IMG/VR virus record: IMGVR_UViG_2534681834_000001
Span: 1-9,108 of that record
DNA: 9,108 nt
Source of the DNA: a virus
Lineage: Monodnaviria > Loebvirae > Hofneiviricota > Faserviricetes > Tubulavirales > Inoviridae
Reading direction: 5' to 3' (one strand)
Part shown: piece by piece, positions 1 through 9,108 of the stretch
How the letters are laid out: each line of letters opens with the position of its first letter
Numbering within the stretch: the stretch's first letter is position 1
The notes under the pieces: generated by a model
The model's input: the letters and a program-made list of their open reading frames with translations, nothing else
What the model was told of the DNA's origin: nothing
The model's database searches: none
Position numbers and translations under genes: made by a program

Positions 1-129
1 CTATGACATATCTCCCTGGTATCGGCGGACAACCAAAGGCACAACATGAAACATCATCATGCCGCCTTCCATGCCTGACGGCATAAAAACAATAAAACAA
101 ACATCGTCATATTGCTTAAAAAATGCCAT
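1..129 (-). CDS. Hypothetical small protein (about 42 aa) downstream of pIV; speculative
   Basis: By my reading a minus-strand frame is open from the pIV stop down to a TAG occupying window bases 1-3, with an in-frame ATG at 127-129 (a TTG at 163-165 is an alternative). It is below the ORF-track length cutoff and has a weak RBS. The window starting exactly on a stop codon, and ending exactly on the hipB start, suggests gene-boundary trimming. Confidence 0.25.
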   Translation of the reverse strand: MAFFKQYDDVCFIVFMPSGMEGGMMMFHVVPLVVRRYQGDMS

Positions 130-189
130 AAACCAAGATTCATCTTCTGTCCGTTCTCCTCGCAAAGCTGCGGGGATCGGACAGAATTC

Positions 190-1416
190 TCATCTTGGTA
201 CTTTGCGAACCTGAAGCATCACAACAATATCTGTCTTAGAATTTTCTGATGAACGTGAGCCAAAAATAGACCAACCAGACGAAGATTTAGAATCCTTCTG
301 CTCTGCAAGGCCGCCTATCAAAATAATATCACCATCATTCATAACAACGTCTGTTGTCACATCTCGCTTTAAAAGCGTCGGAGAATTATTAACGCCAGTA
401 TCAGTTGCAACAAAATTAGAAAGCTGCTGTTGAATGTTCAAATCAATAGCGTTGATTTTAATAGATGGTTTCACTCTAAACAAAACCCCTGAGCTACGAT
501 ACTCAACAGACTGAGTTGAATTATTACCATTAACTGTAACACTACCTAAAACAGGAACATCGGCACCTACAGAAAAAGAAGCCTCTGTATTATTCTTCAC
601 GCGCAATCTTGGCGAAGATACAACAGAAAATCTGTTATCAGTTGAAAGTAATGTATAAATTGCATCAATTGAACCTGTTTTTAAACTCAAAAAATCACCA
701 GAAGTACTAACGTTAGAGCCAAGAGAAATATTAAATTTTTCAGATATAACTTTAGCAGCAAGTAAAAATCCTGAGCCATCATTCTGACCAGTCTGAACCT
801 CAAAAACATATCCTGAAACAACAACCTCATCAGGAACCGTATCAATGGTTGGCAATATGCTTTTGATAATGTCAATATCTTTTTGTGTGCCATAATAAAC
901 AAGAGAATCACCTAACCTATTGAAATTATTAGAAGCCCCTGAAGAAGAAGTACTGGATATGTTAGTGCTTATATTTCCTGAATTTCCAAATTGACCAGAT
1001 ACAAAACCAGAGAGAATATCAGACAAATAACCAACTGAACGATTTAATGGAGAATACACAAAAACCTTTAAAATGGGAGGTTTTTCTTGAGGTTTAAAAG
1101 GCGTTATGTAGTCAACACCTTTTTTTGTATGAATTTTAATGTTCATATTAGAAAAATAACGTTCAATAAAATCACGCTCATTAACATCCTTGGTTATTTT
1201 AAATGAAACAAGTCGTTGGTCATTGGCTAAATCAGGAGAAATCATATAAGGAACCTTAAAAACCTCTGAATAAATCAAAGAAATAGCCTCAGGTAAAGCA
1301 AGCTTTTTTATTTCAAGCTCAGTGGCAGAAAAACAAGAAAAACTAAAAACATCAAGCACATATATATTAAACGTTTCATTTGTCACCACCTGAATAAAAA
1401 GTAACAAGCTCACCAT
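190..1416 (-). CDS. Filamentous-phage pIV-like outer-membrane secretin (virion export channel)
   Basis: Final gene of the module, about 410-430 aa, with a secretin-like C-terminal region (…DGDIILIGGLAEQKD…IVVMLQVRKV) whose architecture matches M13 pIV as I recall it. The track ORF begins at a TTG (1479); the first ATG (1414-1416) has an AGGA RBS about 7 nt upstream, so I place the start at 1416, overlapping the pI stop by about 40 nt. Confidence 0.85.
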   Translation of the reverse strand: MVSLLLFIQVVTNETFNIYVLDVFSFSCFSATELEIKKLALPEAISLIYSEVFKVPYMISPDLANDQRLVSFKITKDVNERDFIERYFSNMNIKIHTKKGVDYITPFKPQEKPPILKVFVYSPLNRSVGYLSDILSGFVSGQFGNSGNISTNISSTSSSGASNNFNRLGDSLVYYGTQKDIDIIKSILPTIDTVPDEVVVSGYVFEVQTGQNDGSGFLLAAKVISEKFNISLGSNVSTSGDFLSLKTGSIDAIYTLLSTDNRFSVVSSPRLRVKNNTEASFSVGADVPVLGSVTVNGNNSTQSVEYRSSGVLFRVKPSIKINAIDLNIQQQLSNFVATDTGVNNSPTLLKRDVTTDVVMNDGDIILIGGLAEQKDSKSSSGWSIFGSRSSENSKTDIVVMLQVRKVPR

Positions 1417-2413
1417 CAACAATTCCTGTAAGTAAAACACCTTGATAATTAAAGGTGGAAGCAGGAACCATGCGGACAAGACCTGAATTATTTGTAATTA
1501 TCACATAGCTACGCCCTTCTCTTTCAAGTTTCCCAACGATACGCCAAGTTGAAGATAATTTAGGTGTATTTGGAATTTCAGGAACTGAATTAAAATTAAC
1601 AGAACGTAAATTAGATTCCTGAGGCGGCAAATCAGAAGCATCACTCTTGACCAAACCACCATTAAAAAACCTATAAAGATAACCAATGCTAAATATGAAA
1701 ATGAGAATCATAGCAAGAACAACAAAATACAAACTTTTCTTGCCTAAAATGCTAGCCCGATTATCAACAGTAAGTTCTTTGCCATCCCCATTCTCATATG
1801 ATTTATACAAAGGGAATATATCTGGATTATATTTCCTCTGATAACTTGTAATTTTGTTTGACTTATAAAGTTTAGAACCATTAAAAACATCGACACGATA
1901 ACGACTCTTCATGCCAATAGCAATATGCTTTTGCATTCTAAAAGTAGTATCTAACCTTGCTTTAATAAAACGAGGTAAAGAAGAAACCTCCTGATTTATA
2001 ACAACAAGGTCACAACAAACACCAGTTTCAATATTAGTAAAATGACGATGCTCGGCAATAAATGAACGATGATTCTCACAAATGGATTTATCACTATCCC
2101 AAATGCGCCAAGATTCATCAATAACAATCAAATCTCCATACTGACAAAATGTATCTTCAGGACGAGAATCTTTATATGGGAAAAAATCATCAGCTTTGAC
2201 ATCATCATTAGAAACATAAACAACATCACCTAAAGATATATCTTTCCCCGATTTTGATTTTTTCATGCAATAAGCATGAATTTTATCTTTATTTATACCG
2301 TAAATATTAGTAACAACACGACGCCCAGAAGAACAAGCAGGTACAATAACACTAGAAACAACCTCGTATGATTTACCACTACCTAAAGAACCAACATAAG
2401 CAGAAATAGGCAT
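1376..2413 (-). CDS. Filamentous-phage pI / Zot-family assembly ATPase
   Basis: N-terminal Walker A motif GSLGSGKS, directly comparable to M13 pI GKLGSGKT, a single internal hydrophobic segment (YFVVLAMILIFIFSIGYLY), about 345 aa, and located between pVI and pIV. The track start at 2425 is a TTG; the ATG at 2411-2413 puts the Walker A at the N-terminus as in pI/Zot. Confidence 0.85.
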   Translation of the reverse strand: MPISAYVGSLGSGKSYEVVSSVIVPACSSGRRVVTNIYGINKDKIHAYCMKKSKSGKDISLGDVVYVSNDDVKADDFFPYKDSRPEDTFCQYGDLIVIDESWRIWDSDKSICENHRSFIAEHRHFTNIETGVCCDLVVINQEVSSLPRFIKARLDTTFRMQKHIAIGMKSRYRVDVFNGSKLYKSNKITSYQRKYNPDIFPLYKSYENGDGKELTVDNRASILGKKSLYFVVLAMILIFIFSIGYLYRFFNGGLVKSDASDLPPQESNLRSVNFNSVPEIPNTPKLSSTWRIVGKLEREGRSYVIITNNSGLVRMVPASTFNYQGVLLTGIVDGELVTFYSGGDK

Positions 2414-2417
2414 AAAA

Positions 2418-2711
2418 CTAACCAATAATCGGAATTCTACGAATAATAAAACGAGTAATATATGCGTTAAATATTAACTGAAAACCTTCATTGAACTTAA
2501 ATAAATCAAAAAAATACCACATAGGAGCAGGTAAAGCTCGAAATAAAGCTGGCACGTTAAAATTAAATGGTATCCATGAAGATAATACATAAATGAACTC
2601 ATGAACAACAAAAAGAAGTCCAAAAAACAAAACAAACCTAATGATAACAGTTCTAAAAATAAAACCTAAAAGAACATTAACGATACTAAATAACAATCCA
2701 AATAAAGCCAT
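2418..2711 (-). CDS. pVI-like minor coat protein (hydrophobic, 97 aa)
   Basis: Highly hydrophobic small protein in the pIII-pI slot, with an ATG start and a GAGG RBS. Its stop lies 4 nt before the pI ATG. Assignment is by position and composition only. Confidence 0.6.
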   Translation of the reverse strand: MALFGLLFSIVNVLLGFIFRTVIIRFVLFFGLLFVVHEFIYVLSSWIPFNFNVPALFRALPAPMWYFFDLFKFNEGFQLIFNAYITRFIIRRIPIIG

Positions 2712-2726
2712 TTTAAAACCTCAATG

Positions 2727-4199
2727 TCACGTAGAAAGCAAAATACGCAAGGAAATTAAAGCCCATATCAAAGAAGAAATGACACCAATAAAAGAACGGT
2801 ATTCCTCCAAAAATACGCAATGCATATCAATAACGTAATCTCTATCAAACACATTAAATTTAGCAACAGGACATGTAGCAGAAAGACCTGATGGACGTAC
2901 TTCTAAATCTCGATACTGATTAAAAAGTTCTTTAATTGGACGAAGTATCTCCTCCGCAGAAGGTGGTGTATCTAGCGTCGGTTCCGGCACGTCTGGATGA
3001 CTAAAATCAGGATTATTTGTACCATTATCAGAACCGCCACCTGACTCACCAGAAGAAAATCCAGGCGCACTAATATTCACATCAGAAGATGGTGAATTTT
3101 GAGCTGGATACATATAATCAAATTCTGTCAAAGAACCATAATTAGGATAAGCAACTTTTATTTCATTCGATGTTACAGGATTTGTTGAAGATACAGGGAC
3201 TCCCTGATAATCTGGCTGGGATGCTGCATCCATTAATAAATTATTTATCATCTTAGCAAGAGTATCCAAATCCATAGGGACTTTCTTTAATCCATCCATA
3301 ACAGAAAACCCATCATCATCAGTTGCCATCTTATAATCAGAAAAAAGAATCTCTAGAGCCTTATCAAAATCCTTATTAAAATACACCTGTATACCCTGAA
3401 TAGGAGTAATAGTAGTAGTTATTGACTCACTATCTGTATTTAAATAAGAAGAAGTATAGCTATATTTTACAGACGAGGCCGCCCCCTCTTGTCCTTCATT
3501 TACCGATAAAATATTCAACTTATAGCTACAAGATTTATCAGGTGCCCGGCAAGTTAAACCACCACCTGATGCAACTGAATTAAAATATCCTTGAGCAACC
3601 CCAGTAACAGAACCTACAATAAATGGCCCCTTACAAGATGTACCATAAGTACATTGCCACCAACGATAACCGGCACTTACCTTATCAACAGTATCATAAC
3701 TATTCATATTAAGTGAGTCAGCACTGATGACAAAAGGATTATCAGGAGTTGGTTCAAAATCTACAGTAAACGTTTTATCACCAAAATTAACCTCCCATTT
3801 ACCGTTACCTAAAGCTTTACCAGATGTGGCAATTAAATAACGACCATTATCAGAAAAATTTTCAGCAGTAAGAGACCCAACGGAATATCCAACTCCAGCC
3901 CATGTCAATGCACCTGAAGCACTACGGAAAAAGCCCTTGCTGGCAATAGATGGCGATTTTGACAACACAGTTTTAGATACTGCTGTAGATGTATTCCTAA
4001 CCATTAATGAATAAGCAGATTCGGTAGTCGTTACCTGAAGAGCTCTAGATGAAATCACCCTACCAAGCACAGTTGGAAGAACTGCCCTAGTTACAAGTAA
4101 AGGATTAGAGTAAACTTTCTGCACTGGAATTAATAAAGAGAAAAAAAATATAAAAAGAGATGTTAAAGCGATAACCCTTTGATTACAGCCCAAGCGCAT
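2727..4199 (-). CDS. pIII-like minor coat / adsorption protein (490 aa)
   Basis: N-terminal signal-peptide-like hydrophobic stretch, Cys-containing N-terminal domains, a Gly/Ser-rich linker (SSGESGGGSDNG) and a C-terminal domain with membrane anchor (…CPVAKFNVFDRDYVIDMHCVFLEEYRSFIGVISSLIWALISL…) that resembles the M13 pIII C-terminus pattern C.P..F…IDC…FR. It sits immediately after the pVIII terminator. Confidence 0.75.
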   Translation of the reverse strand: MRLGCNQRVIALTSLFIFFFSLLIPVQKVYSNPLLVTRAVLPTVLGRVISSRALQVTTTESAYSLMVRNTSTAVSKTVLSKSPSIASKGFFRSASGALTWAGVGYSVGSLTAENFSDNGRYLIATSGKALGNGKWEVNFGDKTFTVDFEPTPDNPFVISADSLNMNSYDTVDKVSAGYRWWQCTYGTSCKGPFIVGSVTGVAQGYFNSVASGGGLTCRAPDKSCSYKLNILSVNEGQEGAASSVKYSYTSSYLNTDSESITTTITPIQGIQVYFNKDFDKALEILFSDYKMATDDDGFSVMDGLKKVPMDLDTLAKMINNLLMDAASQPDYQGVPVSSTNPVTSNEIKVAYPNYGSLTEFDYMYPAQNSPSSDVNISAPGFSSGESGGGSDNGTNNPDFSHPDVPEPTLDTPPSAEEILRPIKELFNQYRDLEVRPSGLSATCPVAKFNVFDRDYVIDMHCVFLEEYRSFIGVISSLIWALISLRILLST

Positions 4200-4250
4200 A
4201 AAAGTCCCCAGAAAAAACTCATTAAATACCAGAAATTTAAAATCATAACC

Positions 4251-4276
4251 AAAAAAAGGGGAGAAACTCCCCTTAC
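4251..4276 (-). terminator. Rho-independent terminator downstream of the major coat gene
   Basis: On the minus strand: AAGGGGAG-TTT-CTCCCCTT followed by a run of T, starting about 10 nt after the pVIII stop. This is the same position as the strong terminator after gene VIII in Ff phages. Confidence 0.7.
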
Positions 4277-4285
4277 CTTAATAGA

Positions 4286-4516
4286 TTAAGCCGATTTAAC
4301 TGTACGAAGAATCCAACGAACGCCAGCAATACCAGCATAAAGTACAACTAATGATGCTGCTACGGCCATAATACCAGTAAGAACAGAACCAAAATCAATT
4401 GAATTGGTAAGTTGACTCAAATCAACCCCTGAAGAAGATGTGCCTGGGTCATCAGCAAAAGAAGGCATAGAAAATGAAGCTGCCAGTAATGAACCTAATG
4501 AAATGATCTTTTTCAT
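4286..4516 (-). CDS. pVIII-like major coat protein precursor
   Basis: From MKKIISLGSLLAASFSMPSFA (signal peptide, AxA-like cleavage before DDPG) the mature ~55-aa protein has an acidic N-terminus, hydrophobic core and basic C-terminus (RWILRTVKSA), the hallmark of inovirus major coat proteins. GGTGG RBS before the ATG at 4514-4516; the track's longer start at 4537 is less likely. Confidence 0.85.
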   Translation of the reverse strand: MKKIISLGSLLAASFSMPSFADDPGTSSSGVDLSQLTNSIDFGSVLTGIMAVAASLVVLYAGIAGVRWILRTVKSA

Positions 4517-4529
4517 AAAAATCCACCAT

Positions 4530-4757
4530 TTATGCATTTCGTATTAACTTGATAATCAAGCTGATGCAATGTGAAAATAAATACAAAGCAACAACCGAAG
4601 TAAAAGCAACCCCCCAATATTGAGCAAATATTGAATAATCAATATCAGAGAATTGCTGGTATGGAATCTCAGAAAAAATTAACTTGACTTCCTTACAGTC
4701 ACCACTGGGTTTAATATCACAAATAGAGGCAATAATAACTTTATCATGAGATTCCAT
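4530..4757 (-). CDS. Small membrane protein (75 aa) at the pVII/pIX position; function unknown
   Basis: Single ORF between pV and pVIII with a C-terminal hydrophobic segment (WGVAFTSVVALYLFSHCISLIIKLI). Ff phages have two ~32-aa proteins (pVII, pIX) in this slot; here there is one longer protein. Assignment is positional only. Confidence 0.5.
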   Translation of the reverse strand: MESHDKVIIASICDIKPSGDCKEVKLIFSEIPYQQFSDIDYSIFAQYWGVAFTSVVALYLFSHCISLIIKLIRNA

Positions 4758-4763
4758 AACTTA

Positions 4764-5036
4764 TCACTTTTCTGCAATAGGAATTAAAACAATCTTACCA
4801 ATACGTAATTTTTGAAAGTCACCAACAAAAATACTGGAAGGATGCAACTGATACAAACCAGCCGGATATGGAGCCTGGCCTTGTTCAAGAGGAATTTTAA
4901 ATAGTTGAGGGTAATCCCCACCGAGGAAAATATAACCAGACTGTTCAGATATCGTATATGGTTTACCAGTGTTCTTAGAAACACCACTACGAGTATCTGC
5001 AACAGCTTGAGTAGGTTTAATTTCAATCTTAATCAT
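4764..5036 (-). CDS. pV-like ssDNA-binding protein (90 aa)
   Basis: The translation MIKIEIKPTQAVADTRSGVSKNTGKPYTISEQSGYIFLGGDYPQLFKIPLEQGQAPYPAGLYQLHPSSIFVGDF… aligns along its length with M13 gene V protein (MIKVEIKPSQAQFTTRSGVSRQGKPYSLNEQLCYVDLGNEYPVLVKITLDEGQPAYAPGLYTVHLSSFKVGQF…, from memory). AGGTG RBS; start 13 nt after the pII stop. Confidence 0.9.
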   Translation of the reverse strand: MIKIEIKPTQAVADTRSGVSKNTGKPYTISEQSGYIFLGGDYPQLFKIPLEQGQAPYPAGLYQLHPSSIFVGDFQKLRIGKIVLIPIAEK

Positions 5037-5049
5037 AATACACCTAATG

Positions 5050-6165
5050 TTAAGCTACACGTAAATAAGACGGCTTTATATACCAAGAAGGAATAACACA
5101 ATCCGAAACAGTTATTTCTCTTGTTTGTTTCACAACAACAGGAGAGAATTTAGAGACATTACATTTTTGAGCAATATCAATACCAATCTTCCTTAACCTT
5201 GCTCGATGTGTCTGGACTTGCTTTTTATTTAAATCAAAAATATGACCGTGAAACCATTGAATTGCATACATGGCTGTAGTATTGGCAGCACGAGTAGTGT
5301 CAACAACACCACGACTAATAAGATGTTCACTAATAGTTTCAAAGTCCATAGCATTCACCGATAACTTTTCATCAAGCTCAAGAAATTCAGAATGTAACTT
5401 ATTTAACAAAGAATAATCAGAAAGTCCCCAATAGCACATGGATTTTTTTTGAAGAAAACGAGACTTTAATTTTTGCTCAAACCTGACAATGCCGTTGTCC
5501 TTGCAGTAATTAATGACATCCATTATATAATTAAATTCTTTAGAATCCTCTGAGAATTTATTTTTGATTTTCGCAAGGCTATGCAACTCAAGCTCATGAG
5601 CTTTGTTATATACTGTTGGGTATATAAGATTGACATTGCCTTTTTTTGAAAGCCAGTCAACGGATTTCCCATTGGAATGCAACCGTGGAATACTATTCCT
5701 GTAAGGTTGAGTAGAAAGACCTGATATATAATCATCCTCATTCCCCTTCCCTACTGATTTGTTTGATGTTATATGCAGTTCTTTAATTAAAGCACCATCA
5801 GTAATCAAATGAGCTTTTTCATTCTCTTTCGATTGTCCAGGCATTAACTTTGTACACTTGGTAAATAAAGGTAATTTCAGTTCAGTTAGAATCTGATTAA
5901 ATACCATGACACAAGCATCTACAGTCGGAAGCCCAAAAAGATTATCAAGACGTCCCCAGCGGGACGGATTTCCAGTCATTTTTAACACTGAACCACGGAT
6001 CGAGATTGAAACAACATCACAGAAAGAGCCACGATGCTGGAAGGTTGGTTGAGATAATGCGCTAGCCTCCCCGCTTTCAAGATGTATACGCTGATAAGCT
6101 ACATCGCTCAGTATCGGCAACTGATAGCCGAAATCCTGTTCGATAGTTAACCAGTCGTAAAACAT
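5050..6165 (-). CDS. pII-like rolling-circle replication initiator (nickase)
   Basis: First and largest gene of the module, directly upstream of pV. The internal segment DNGIVRFEQKLKSRFLQ matches M13 gII SGLVRFEARIKTRYLK (from memory). The track start at 6177 is a TTG; the first ATG (6163-6165) is preceded by a GAGAG RBS. Confidence 0.85.
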   Translation of the reverse strand: MFYDWLTIEQDFGYQLPILSDVAYQRIHLESGEASALSQPTFQHRGSFCDVVSISIRGSVLKMTGNPSRWGRLDNLFGLPTVDACVMVFNQILTELKLPLFTKCTKLMPGQSKENEKAHLITDGALIKELHITSNKSVGKGNEDDYISGLSTQPYRNSIPRLHSNGKSVDWLSKKGNVNLIYPTVYNKAHELELHSLAKIKNKFSEDSKEFNYIMDVINYCKDNGIVRFEQKLKSRFLQKKSMCYWGLSDYSLLNKLHSEFLELDEKLSVNAMDFETISEHLISRGVVDTTRAANTTAMYAIQWFHGHIFDLNKKQVQTHRARLRKIGIDIAQKCNVSKFSPVVVKQTREITVSDCVIPSWYIKPSYLRVA

Positions 6166-6177
6166 AGAATCTCTCAA

Positions 6178-6360
6178 TCATTCAAGATGAGCCGCAAGGC
6201 TCAACACTGATACTTAACGGTATCAATAATGCTATTATCAAACATAACAGACGTCAATGGTATTGATACTAACAAATATCAAAACTGACCCTACAGATTC
6301 AGCTATGAAAAATGGAGGTTAAAATTAAGACTTTGCAATCAGCATGAGAAGGCAGCAGAT
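6178..6360. promoter_or_regulatory. Divergent promoter/operator region between pII (minus) and the HTH regulator (plus); possibly also the plus-strand origin
   Basis: 183-bp AT-rich intergenic spacer between divergent genes. Candidate sigma70 elements for the regulator: TTCAGC (6298-6303), 16-nt spacer, TAAAAT (6320-6325), then an AGAAGG RBS. Candidate for pII on the minus strand: TTGACG (rc of 6252-6257), 17-nt spacer, TAGCAT (rc of 6229-6234). The motifs are weak matches. Confidence 0.5.
6205..6285. repeat. Cluster of TATCAA / TTGATA hexamers (putative operator or iteron sites)
   Basis: TATCAA at about 6221, 6236 and 6276; inverted TTGATA at about 6263; inverted pair TGATAC-N6-GTATCA at 6208-6225; GTATTGATAC at 6260-6269. 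They overlap the candidate pII promoter elements. Confidence 0.4.
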
Positions 6361-6849
6361 ATGGCAGTAGACAAAGAGTGTGCAGAACGTATACGTCTGT
6401 CTATCATCCAAAATTTTACATATGACGATATCGAAAATGAAACAGGTATCAGCGTCAGTACCCTTAAACGGCTGGCTTCTGGAGAAAGGGAACCCAAATT
6501 AATAGAAATCAGGAAGATAGCTAAAGCGACAGGAAAAAATCCGGTATGGTTAGCATTCGGTGAGTCAACCCTGCCTCTGCCTGAGAACCTTGGCGAAGAT
6601 ATGACTGCTTTTGGTTACGGTATGGATTTTAAGTTACAAGGTCATGAAGCAGGTGAAGCGGCGGCGAAAATCCGCCTGATGGCCGCGATCCGGGACATAG
6701 AGAAAGATGATGTTGTTTTTCTGGAAAAATTTATAGACTTGCTGAATCTGGATCGCACAATAAACAGCGTCAAAACCAAACGTTACGGCTACACAGAAGA
6801 AGAAACGCTGAAAAGACTAAACCTTCCCCAGCCGAAGGGGAAAAAGTAA
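6361..6849 (+). CDS. XRE/Cro-CI-type helix-turn-helix transcriptional regulator (putative prophage repressor, 162 aa)
   Basis: N-terminal HTH signature (…TYDDIENETGISVSTLKRLASGEREPKLIEIRKIAKATGKNPVWLAFGE…) typical of phage repressors, with a C-terminal ~90 aa I do not recognise. It is transcribed divergently from pII, like rstR versus rstA in CTXphi, and is noticeably more GC-rich than the structural module. Confidence 0.8.
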   Translation: MAVDKECAERIRLSIIQNFTYDDIENETGISVSTLKRLASGEREPKLIEIRKIAKATGKNPVWLAFGESTLPLPENLGEDMTAFGYGMDFKLQGHEAGEAAAKIRLMAAIRDIEKDDVVFLEKFIDLLNLDRTINSVKTKRYGYTEEETLKRLNLPQPKGKK

Positions 6850-6852
6850 AAA

Positions 6853-6909
6853 TACCGTGGGAAACCACGGTAAAGTTCGGGTGTCACAGAACCCCGAACC
6901 GCTTCGCGG
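6853..6909 (+). other. Three consecutive GC-rich stem-loops immediately after the regulator stop (terminator-like, or ssDNA origin/packaging hairpins)
   Basis: TACCGTGG-GAAA-CCACGGTA (6853-6872; 8-bp stem with a GNRA-type loop), GTTCGGG-N11-CCCGAAC (6875-6899), and CCGC-TTC-GCGG (6899-6909). None is followed by a T-run, so they are not classical intrinsic terminators. Confidence 0.4.
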
Positions 6910-7348
6910 TACAAATTTTAACCAAATGAAGAAAAAAAGACCATGCTTAAAAAAGATGGAAAAAGGAAAAAATAGTTGTTATTGAAAAAGCCAACTGCTT
7001 AGACTGCGAACAATTATCAGAAAGAATAGTTGAAAAAATCAAAGAGACAGAAGCATTAATAGAATGCCCTATTGGAGAACTGGACTTTCAATACATCGTC
7101 ATGAATGAAGCCAAAGCATATGCTATAAGAAAAAGAAAAAGATTTATATTTCAAAGGGTTAGCATATGATTTTGAAGGGGGTGAAAAAGCAGAATGGACA
7201 AGAAATTTAAGGGATGCACTCATATTCGATGATGAAAGAAAAGCAGCAATGATGATAAGGATAATGACATTCCCAAGAATGAATTATGAAATAGTTCCTT
7301 TAATCTACAAAGTAGATCCTCTATTCAAATCTGAAAAATAAAAATTTT

Positions 7349-7375
7349 GGTACGCACAATGGCGTTATGTATAAA
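7349..7375 (+). other. dif-like XerC/XerD site A (phage attP-type, degenerate)
   Basis: GGTACGCACAA-TGGCG-TTATGTATAAA against E. coli dif GGTGCGCATAA-TGTATA-TTATGTTAAAT (from memory): XerC arm 9/11, XerD arm 8/11, 5-nt central region. It lies in inverted orientation to site B on the other side of the hairpin. Confidence 0.5.
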
Positions 7376-7413
7376 AAGGCCGCTGCCGGATGAAAGTCTA
7401 GCAGCGGCCTTTT
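7374..7413. terminator. Perfect 13-bp stem-loop, bidirectional terminator-like; core of the putative attP forked hairpin
   Basis: AAAAGGCCGCTGC (7374-7386), 14-nt loop, GCAGCGGCCTTTT (7401-7413). A GC-rich stem with a T-run on either strand, about 105 nt downstream of the hipA stop, so it likely terminates hipBA transcripts and plus-strand transcripts from the phage side. Confidence 0.6.
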
Positions 7414-7443
7414 CAACATAACGCATACTACATTATGCGCACC
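7411..7443 (-). other. dif-like XerCD recombination site B (host-type XerC arm; putative prophage-chromosome junction at dif)
   Basis: Minus strand reads GGTGCGCATAA-TGTAGTATGCG-TTATGTTGAAA: the XerC arm is 11/11 to E. coli dif and the first 4 nt of the central region (TGTA) also match, then it diverges; a XerD-like arm (9/11) follows after an 11-nt rather than 6-nt central region. It is about 75-110 bp downstream of the hipA stop, where I recall the chromosomal dif of E. coli K-12 to lie. Confidence 0.6.
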
Positions 7444-7519
7444 AGTATAAACCAAGGAAGAATCCAGTCGTTGGCGGTCATGATTGTCGTGCTCATTAAC
7501 AACGACCAAACCCCATATC

Positions 7520-8842
7520 TCACTTACTACCGTATTCTCGGCTTAACCGTCCATGCAACCTCAACACATTGGTTTCAACTGCCGTCACCACGTTCTCCGG
7601 AAAATCTGTCGGTAATGAAGTCTTCACGTTATCCAGTGCTGCCGGAATCATTCTGGCAAAGTCACTTAGGATTTCATGCATCTGCACTTCCGGGAATCTC
7701 AGCACCTTTGCTGTCGCCAAAAAATGTCGCGGATAAATTTTATCGATTGCCGTTTTTTTGCCTTTGGATGCGTTAAGCCCCATTGCCAGTTTGAGATCGC
7801 TGATGTGTATTCCCGTACCGCCAAGGACCGGAAATGCTGAAATGATGTCGTAAAATGGCGTGAGTCGATAACTGCCGCCAGCCTGAATAAATACGGAGAA
7901 GTTTTTTGCATGGCCATCCGTTGCGCCAATCAACCACTGGAAGACCTGGAATTTCATAAAATCATAACGATCGCGAAGCGCCTCGCTGGACCCCATCAAA
8001 AACGCCATGATCCGCGCGATGCCTGGGCCTCCATCTGATTCATATTTCACAGATGAAGGTAAACCGAATGTCTGACACATATCCTCCTGTGGCAAGCGAA
8101 GTAAAACCGTTCGCTCAGTATTCCAACGCCTGTCAAAACGTTCGACCGCTAACGCGCGCACCCTTCCCGCTTTAATGATTTCTGCGTCCGGAACATTCAA
8201 CCCAAGTTCTTTCGCCAGCAGCAGACAGTAATACTCATTATCAACGCTTTGGCTGAGATCGAGCGTCGCATTGGGCTGCCTGATTTCGCCAATCGGTAAT
8301 TTAATGATGTGCGTCGTCGGCGTTATTCCTTTCGGAATGCACCAGTCATTGCCTATTCTAAGCAGCGCTGTCTTCTCCTGCGCGCCAGCAACCGAGATGC
8401 GAAAGTCATTTTCTTCTCTAATCATGCCCAGAGGGATATCTGCTTTATAAGCCGTTAATACTTCTTCAAGCCTGGCTTCAGTAAGCTTTTCCCATGCCAT
8501 TATCGGGCGCGTTATGGTTTCATTTTCGGGTAATAACGTTACGGCACCAACGCTGTCTCGCCCTATTTCTGACAATAAATCAAACGGTTGTCTGGATTTA
8601 GCATGATAACGTTTAACGATCCGGTCACGTACAATCGGGCTATCGGGTAACAGGTTATCGAAGAAGTTAAATACGGCATCTGAGGTGATATTCCCCCTCT
8701 GCAATGGCAGCGAAAGTGACAACGGTCTGGCATAACGGCTGGCTAACCACTCCGGTGCATACTTAAAGGTGTGCGCGCCGTTGGCTAACTTCGTTAACTC
8801 GCCTACCCGCTGGTTGTTCATCCAAGTGACAAGTTTAGGCAT
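7520..8842 (-). CDS. hipA: HipA serine/threonine kinase toxin of the HipBA toxin-antitoxin system
   Basis: The translation from MPKLVTWMNNQRVGELTKLANGAHTFKYAPEWLAS… to …LRLHGRLSREYGSK matches E. coli HipA (440 aa) as I recall it. The track ORF is extended upstream to an out-of-context start; the real ATG at 8840-8842 overlaps the hipB stop by 1 nt. Confidence 0.97.
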   Translation of the reverse strand: MPKLVTWMNNQRVGELTKLANGAHTFKYAPEWLASRYARPLSLSLPLQRGNITSDAVFNFFDNLLPDSPIVRDRIVKRYHAKSRQPFDLLSEIGRDSVGAVTLLPENETITRPIMAWEKLTEARLEEVLTAYKADIPLGMIREENDFRISVAGAQEKTALLRIGNDWCIPKGITPTTHIIKLPIGEIRQPNATLDLSQSVDNEYYCLLLAKELGLNVPDAEIIKAGRVRALAVERFDRRWNTERTVLLRLPQEDMCQTFGLPSSVKYESDGGPGIARIMAFLMGSSEALRDRYDFMKFQVFQWLIGATDGHAKNFSVFIQAGGSYRLTPFYDIISAFPVLGGTGIHISDLKLAMGLNASKGKKTAIDKIYPRHFLATAKVLRFPEVQMHEILSDFARMIPAALDNVKTSLPTDFPENVVTAVETNVLRLHGRLSREYGSK

Positions 8843-9108
8843 TACCACTCCAGATCTTGCTGTTCTGTTGATTCTGGCGAGGCATTTTTCGTGTCGCATA
8901 GTGTCATTGAGAGTTCAAGCGACTGTAAAATCTTAAAAAATGTCGTGAGCGTGGTATTGTCAGGGTTGTTTTCGAAATTGGAAATTGTCGCCTGCTTAAT
9001 GCCAATTTTTTTCGCCAGCTCGCTCTGCGTCCAGCCATTTTGCTGGCGAACCAGTTTCATTGCATTCGCTAATTGCGTTGGGCTATAGATCTTCTGAAAG
9101 CTCATCAT
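8842..9108 (-). CDS. hipB: HipB antitoxin / HTH autorepressor of hipBA
   Basis: The 88-aa translation MMSFQKIYSPTQLANAMKLVRQQNGWTQSELAKKIGIKQATISNFENNPDNTTLTTFFKILQSLELSMTL… matches E. coli HipB. The start codon is the final triplet of the window, so the promoter and operators are outside it. Confidence 0.97.
   Translation of the reverse strand: MMSFQKIYSPTQLANAMKLVRQQNGWTQSELAKKIGIKQATISNFENNPDNTTLTTFFKILQSLELSMTLCDTKNASPESTEQQDLEW

Follow-up and report, generated by a model that had tools for sequence, protein, structure and literature searches.

The receptor-binding domains of filamentous phages decide host range, and the gene III N-termini of inoviruses are, as a rule, divergent. The gene III protein (pIII or g3p) of f1 has a beta-hairpin bracketed by Cys354 and Cys371 ahead of its transmembrane helix, and its last 93 residues are enough for assembly (PMC10175506). 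In dif-integrating inoviruses of the PuvA/YPO2277 type, the protein in the gene III position is needed for particle production and a broad host range is reported (PMC4266046), and UPphi-type phages have also been described (PMC7307601). Retargeting M13 for phage display or antibacterial delivery involves the exchange of receptor-binding domains (PMC12477597). Here, we analyze a 490-residue protein encoded in positions 1 to 9,108 of IMG/VR virus record IMGVR_UViG_2534681834_000001 (Inoviridae); the whole of this 9,108-nucleotide stretch is referred to as the window. An earlier note, made from the letters alone, had called the product of this open reading frame (ORF) a pIII adsorption protein with a divergent N-terminal receptor-binding region. 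The pIII assignment is supported by a position in the gene III slot, a signal peptide, a C-terminal transmembrane segment, a C-terminal module (Ct) resembling that of CoaA, and a natural chimera, P0139. The protein is very probably the pIII-type tip protein of an integrated Escherichia coli filamentous phage, and it is a gene III analogue of known type with an uncharacterised receptor block, belonging to a large unannotated family.

The ORF starts with ATG and is a real gene under strong purifying selection. It is not a chance reading frame, because full-length homologues with 28–94% identity (BLASTP) occur in Salmonella, Lelliottia, Proteus, Providencia, Acinetobacter and Xenorhabdus, because synteny is conserved, and because comparison with the copy in E. 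coli 300709 gives a ratio of nonsynonymous to synonymous substitution rates (dN/dS) of 0.08 at a dS of 0.39. In the same comparison, residues 240–284, in the module that we call Mid, account for 13 of the 29 amino-acid replacements, and Mid also has the highest dN. The protein has no match in Pfam (E≤0.1) or NCBIfam but belongs to PHROG 3942, to which no function is assigned (Table 1). An exhaustive profile search recovered 986 representative clusters at E≤1e-3, and the presence of each module was scored by sub-profile searches on the best 154 of these 986 relatives. Word-index profile searches added no further relatives and did not find the N-terminal block outside the g3p family of the protein, and a sequence search of the PDB returned chance matches only. 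Scanning genome contigs with a single peptide pattern gave only three close loci and hence no wide taxonomic picture.

Gene order places the ORF in the gene III slot. Compared with the M13 annotation, the prophage follows the order II-V-(VII/IX)-VIII-III-VI-I-IV, with every morphogenesis gene on the minus strand, and the 490-residue ORF lies between the major coat gene (VIII) and VI, ahead of I and IV; the prophage holds no other candidate ORF for pIII. The identical order is kept in Proteus mirabilis prophages and in a phage-sized metagenomic Logan contig of 7347 nt (L018), which looks like one genome unit. A terminator-like hairpin (4256..4274, minus strand) separates the major coat gene from gene III, as does the terminator annotated at the equivalent place in IKe and Pf1. 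The DUF2523 protein encoded directly downstream, a pVI analogue, is the presumed tip partner of the 490-residue protein. In the slot of genes VII and IX, between gene V and the coat gene, the 75-residue ORF is the sole ORF.

The C-terminal anchor provides the clearest sequence relationship. A deep Ct profile matches the C-terminal 51 residues of CoaA from the Pf-like Pseudomonas phage 36-2 at E 1e-16 (hmmsearch), and the two C-termini are clearly homologous. Against the gene III proteins of M13, If1, IKe, I2-2 and Pf1, the same profile aligns the cysteines, hairpin and transmembrane segment in register but weakly (hmmsearch E 0.002–0.03; HHalign E 0.005), and direct comparison with M13 g3p gives a BLASTP E of 0.14 and an HHalign probability of 0.3%. 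In the window protein this region comprises a Cys443-x17-Cys461 pair, predicted to form a beta-hairpin, followed by the transmembrane segment; in an AlphaFold2 (AF2) model, strands at 446–450 and 453–457 are followed by helices to the C-terminus. The resemblance of the C-terminal domain to Ff pIII that the earlier note described thus holds as a weak, in-register match, whereas the clear homology is to CoaA.

Natural chimeras link this anchor to characterized receptor domains. The N-terminal 200 residues of P0139 (521 residues) are homologous to IKe g3p (PF21443 E 1e-13; BLASTP E 2e-25), an M13-like N-domain (N2-like) sequence comes after the IKe-type pilus-binding and N1-like domains, and its C-terminal 90 residues are 42% identical to Ct of the window protein (E 4e-21); the helical module that we call H is absent. 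Because P0139 joins IKe- and M13-type domains to Ct, it shows that genuine g3p receptor domains are anchored by Ct in nature and that receptor blocks are exchanged as cassettes. P0139 is the strongest functional link of the window protein to g3p. In a second relative, P0049, an M13 N2-like segment (…LRECAFHSGFNEKPFTC…) occurs together with an H-like motif and Ct. Natural domain shuffling among gene III relatives is seen in P0139, P0049 and P0042.

The region upstream of the anchor is unlike the Ff N1 and N2 domains, as the earlier note had held. The N1 signature Phage_Coat_A (PF05357) is missing at E≤0.1, at which positive controls were recovered (M13 6e-66, If1 1e-31, IKe 1.5e-8), and HHalign of the N-terminal profile against an Ff-like N-terminal alignment gives E 0.84. 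Neither the F-pilus-binding N2 domain, homology to which would have spoken against the note, nor the IKe pilus-binding domain PF21443 was found in the window protein, and the AF2 model shows no N1/N2 fold. Comparison with the gene III proteins of other phages gave the match of Ct to CoaA and found no relatives of the N-terminal block among characterised phages.

Seven segments can be delimited along the protein (Table 1). It has only two hydrophobic segments, the leader at residues 6–30 and the C-terminal transmembrane segment at 469–490, and one short Gly/Ser-rich stretch, SSGESGGGSDNGTNN, at residues 382–396 within the linker. Leader cleavage is inferred at VYS|NP, and an MRLGS..R leader is common to the homologues and the chimera P0139. 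The AF2 model, built from an 11-sequence alignment, has a mean predicted local distance difference test score (pLDDT) of 64.7 and a predicted template modelling score (pTM) of 0.41; it is confident at residues 40–80, 170–285 and 310–350 and poor in Ct (pLDDT 35–65). H has the consensus DLDxLAKMINNLLMDAAxQPDYxGIPxSSxNPxTxNEI, and Ct is recognised by a Pro-rich lead-in, a helix, a CP...HC hairpin, a W-containing transmembrane segment and an RI(L/V)LS end. H, linker and Ct together form a common module of approximately 200 residues, present in some 1,000 related clusters, and residues 31–290 form the variable part. The divergent N-terminal region, which had been put at approximately 350 residues, therefore exists as a region without wider relatives, but its limits are 31–290, as residues 291–375 are widely conserved. 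Both Cys-rich motifs quoted in the note are present in Mid (WWQCTYGTSCKGPF at residues 180–193 and GLTCRAPDKSCSY at 214–226), as is the Gly/Ser stretch. However, family-wide conservation of the cysteines is limited to C217/C224 and C443/C461, with C443 and C461 invariant, and C183/C189 of the first motif are absent from P0002–P0010 but occur in P0001 and in the copy of E. coli 300709, and there alone. We propose that Mid is the specificity determinant.

Table 1 Genes of the window and modules of the gene III analogue. Fractions give the number of relatives carrying a module among the best 154 of 986.
Feature	Residues	Position	Strand	Remarks
Secretin/pIV		190-1479	minus	
Zot/pI		1376-2425	minus	
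pVI-like minor coat protein (DUF2523)		2418-2711	minus	PF10734 E 2e-9; phrog_974 and phrog_306 'minor head protein Ace-like'; directly downstream of gene III analogue
Gene III analogue, adsorption/minor coat protein	490 residues	2727-4199, stop codon included	minus	phrog_3942 E 1.8e-82
Signal peptide	1-30	4110..4199	minus	From hydropathy; MRLGCNQR and hydrophobic core; not scored among relatives
Nt	31-112	3864..4109	minus	Two helices and GALTWAGVGY; semi-conserved; ~38/154; pLDDT ~80-86 at 40-80
B1	113-165	3705..3863	minus	Small beta domain; ~24/154; strands 121-159, pLDDT 60-73
Mid	166-290	3330..3704	minus	Cys-rich alpha+beta; most variable part; ~13/154
H	291-375	3075..3329	minus	Helical, conserved Pro/Gly loop; ~140/154; pLDDT 80-86 at 310-350
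Linker	376-412	2964..3074	minus	G/S/P/D/N-rich, flexible; pLDDT <50 at 383-409; length varies in homologues; not scored
Ct anchor	413-490	2730..2963	minus	Helix, Cys443-x17-Cys461 beta-hairpin, transmembrane helix 469-490; ~152/154
Major coat protein gene (gene VIII analogue)		4286-4537	minus	PF05356 E 3e-4; phrog_2186 E 3.7e-24; directly upstream of gene III analogue
75-residue ORF	75 residues	4530-4757	minus	phrog_3679, function unassigned
pV single-stranded DNA-binding protein		4764-5036	minus	
pII-type replication protein (rep)		5050-6177	minus	
Helix-turn-helix repressor-like gene		6361-6849	plus	
hipA		7520-8899	minus	
hipB		8842-9108	minus	

By analogy with f1 pIII, the protein would be exported by the Sec pathway, lose its leader near VYS|NP and stay in the inner membrane through its C-terminal helix. 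Together with the DUF2523 pVI analogue it may then be added to the end of the virion that is completed last, with the hairpin and transmembrane segment acting as the assembly and anchor element, and leave the cell through the Zot/secretin machinery. During infection, the exposed residues 31–290 would bind the primary receptor, with specificity set by the fast-evolving, Cys-rich Mid, and at entry the conserved C-terminal module would open the tip and insert into the inner membrane. Entry would probably include a Tol-dependent step. H, the Gly/Ser segment and Ct can be read as the counterpart of the whole Ff C domain (C1 helices, linker, C2 helix, hairpin and transmembrane helix); the M13 C domain also has a Gly/Asn/Ser-rich segment ahead of its C2 helix, which would correspond to the Gly/Ser stretch of the window protein. 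On balance we favor H as the counterpart of the Ff C1 helices over a role in co-receptor binding. Several points weigh against the tip protein as proposed and against this assignment of H within it. The similarity to Ff pIII itself lacks statistical significance, and the AF2 model was built from few sequences, has a low pTM and is poor in the very module that would anchor the protein. For H, comparison with the Ff C1 helices gives no signal beyond E ~0.01, its conserved Pro/Gly-rich loop is unlike a simple helical bundle, and P0139 does without it, which suggests that H is not obligatory in the anchor.

Because the receptor-binding region is not of the Ff N1/N2 type, the receptor cannot be named from the sequence. 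The earlier note had gone further and considered the F pilus an improbable primary receptor. An F-specific receptor is indeed unlikely, given the homologues in Proteus, Providencia, Xenorhabdus and Acinetobacter and given that no pilus receptor has been found for the dif-integrating YpfPhi, which has a broad host range (PMC4266046); pili in general are less unlikely. However, the absence of N2 homology is not strictly sufficient for this conclusion, since IKe and If1 attach to conjugative pili through unrelated domains. A pilus (conjugative or otherwise retractile), bound via a new fold, is a reasonable though not the expected candidate for the primary receptor: most characterised inoviruses bind pilus tips, IncI pili are the suspected receptors of the related dif-integrating UPphi phages (PMC7307601), and the IKe-type pilus-binding domains that P0139 carries on the same anchor indicate that some members of the lineage use pili. 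Both the case of YpfPhi and the spread of close homologues over a wide range of genera speak against it.

The high conservation of H admits a second arrangement, in which residues 291–375 form a separate exposed domain that binds a conserved secondary receptor, either TolA or a different partner in the periplasm or inner membrane. The order would be like that of IKe g3p, with a variable pilus-binding domain, a conserved TolA-binding one, a Gly-rich linker and the C domain. H has the highest identity of all modules in nine of the ten family comparisons and lies upstream of the flexible Gly/Ser-rich stretch. In IKe, the conserved Phage_Coat_A (N1-like) domain comes after the pilus-binding domain. 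In P0139, a single case, the IKe N1-like region is present and H is absent. Only approximately 90 residues follow the linker, a length similar to the 93 residues that suffice for assembly in f1 pIII. The same absence of H from P0139 bears on the C1 assignment, as stated above; even so, we regard a co-receptor domain as rather unlikely and retain H as the counterpart of the C1 helices. A broader proposal, which we rate as less likely still, is that H is an unrecognised co-receptor-binding domain in approximately 1,000 inovirus gene III clusters that lack an Ff N1, with Nt, B1 and Mid binding a non-pilus surface receptor. If true, this would be a second widespread entry architecture, used by filamentous phages of Enterobacterales and their relatives.

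Two other explanations fare worse. The N-terminal region could be a true Ff N1/N2 pair that has diverged beyond recognition, with a conjugative (possibly F-like) pilus and TolA used in the Ff manner, as receptor domains of g3p evolve fast, the pilus-binding domains of IKe and If1 are themselves unlike Ff N2 in sequence, and B1 is a small beta domain of about the size of N1, modelled at moderate confidence; with neither Pfam match nor N1/N2 fold, we consider this very improbable. That the protein is instead an accessory product carried by the phage (a moron), for instance an adhesin or toxin that is secreted or membrane-bound, might be suggested by database names that all read 'hypothetical protein' and by the lack of Pfam and NCBIfam matches, but the chance of this is slight, as the gene III slot is invariant, no other ORF of the prophage could supply pIII, and Ct is homologous to CoaA and naturally joined to IKe g3p domains.

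The backbone of the window is E. coli chromosome; hipA and hipB are 95–99% identical to thousands of E. coli genomes, and the element is an Inoviridae-type filamentous prophage inserted downstream of hipA, where dif lies. The window contains neither an integrase ORF nor an E. coli dif with up to three mismatches. Two inverted dif-like sequences adjoin hipA, GGTACGCACAATGGCGTTATGTATAAAA at 7349-7376 (plus) and GGTGCGCATAATGTAGTATGCGTTATGT at 7444-7417 (minus); in the latter the XerC arm of E. coli dif is intact and the XerD side altered. A GC-rich hairpin (~7377-7412) sits between them, and the left prophage junction lies outside the window. The pair with its hairpin (7349-7444) has the appearance of a junction for XerCD attachment, or of a folded attP as in CTXphi. 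The AT-rich interval 6900-7341, which separates these sites from the repressor gene, holds no ORFs other than short, broken ones. Matches to 6855-9108 are found in many E. coli genomes, whose annotation places small hypothetical proteins in this interval; it may be an accessory part of dif-site elements or a remnant. The 59-bp stretch directly after the repressor gene (6841-6899) is 91.5% identical to Alteromonas phage phiAFP1 and, as single-stranded DNA of the minus (coding) strand, folds into three successive hairpins (z = -3.3); Rfam gave no match, this stretch included. It may be a packaging signal or complementary-strand origin common to distant inoviruses.

The phage is a mosaic of a rare structural module on a common replication module, because the replication module is widely matched in E. 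coli and the structural module is not. The replication and regulation module (4751-9108; rep, gene V and repressor) has 98.9% DNA identity to prophages that occupy this site in other E. coli (L008, UTAK-3) and its rep region is 77% identical to phage If1 (L004). In UTAK-3 the entire morphogenesis module is replaced, and the product in the gene III position is annotated merely as 'phage coat protein'. The window's own structural module, gene III included, occurs in one of 5,426 complete E. coli genomes, that of strain 300709, in which a close prophage copy (L001, NZ_CP025903.1, ~1782900-1803600) forms a tandem array beside hipA with gene III at three places and a repeat unit of ~7.33 kb. Tandem arrays are typical of dif-integrated inoviruses. 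Among phage records, megablast of the gene gave no match and tblastn matched only two uncultured inoviruses. The gene III protein of E. coli A37 (428 residues) has Nt, H and Ct in common with the window protein and Mid only weakly; relatives of this type occur in only four complete E. coli genomes, none listed as O18:K1. In strain A37, 'plasmid unnamed4' (L007, NZ_CP195780.1, 7439 bp) comprises the whole genome of an inovirus, probably as its replicative form, and the A37 chromosome carries an integrated copy as well.

The element is probably a rare dif-site prophage of E. coli, and a divergent receptor block in it is an ordinary finding, since divergent gene III N-termini are normal among inoviruses. 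Its interest lies in a large family that has neither functional annotation nor a Pfam or NCBIfam model, with an anchor naturally interchangeable with IKe- and M13-type domains and a receptor block that is new. The module boundaries (variable 31–290, conserved 291–490) offer a rational cut site for domain swaps and for receptor hunting.

Among described systems, PuvA of CUS-1 from E. coli K1 and YPO2277 of YpfPhi from Yersinia pestis are likened here by description only, as proteins of XerCD/dif-integrating Enterobacterales inoviruses; between YpfPhi and UPphi, an identity of less than 20% has been reported for the structural modules. The IKe and I2-2 g3p (Lineavirus) and the IKe-like g3p of UPphi-type phages possibly share the layout of variable receptor domain, conserved domain, linker and anchor, but the window protein lacks PF21443 and PF05357 and its structural module is unrelated to theirs at the DNA level. 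CoaA of phage 36-2 is 42–50% identical to family members over its C-terminal 51 residues, whereas its upstream part is unrelated, without Nt, B1, Mid or H, and phage 36-2 has no secretin gene. Within PHROG 3942, the uncultured Dulem virus 52 and Inovirus D_HF5_61 belong to the same family but do not have Mid in common with the window protein; Dulem virus 52 shares Nt, B1, H, Ct and the gene position. Compared with pIII of Ff (M13/fd/f1), the window protein differs in having no N1/N2 in sequence or predicted fold, one short Gly/Ser stretch in place of two long Gly-rich linkers, another disulfide pattern, and a marginal match over the last ~50 residues. It agrees with Ff pIII in the gene position VIII-III-VI-I-IV, the terminator after the coat gene, the signal peptide, the presumably exposed N-terminal receptor region, the flexible Gly/Ser-rich segment, and, probably, the C-terminal Cys-x16/17-Cys beta-hairpin followed by a terminal transmembrane helix.
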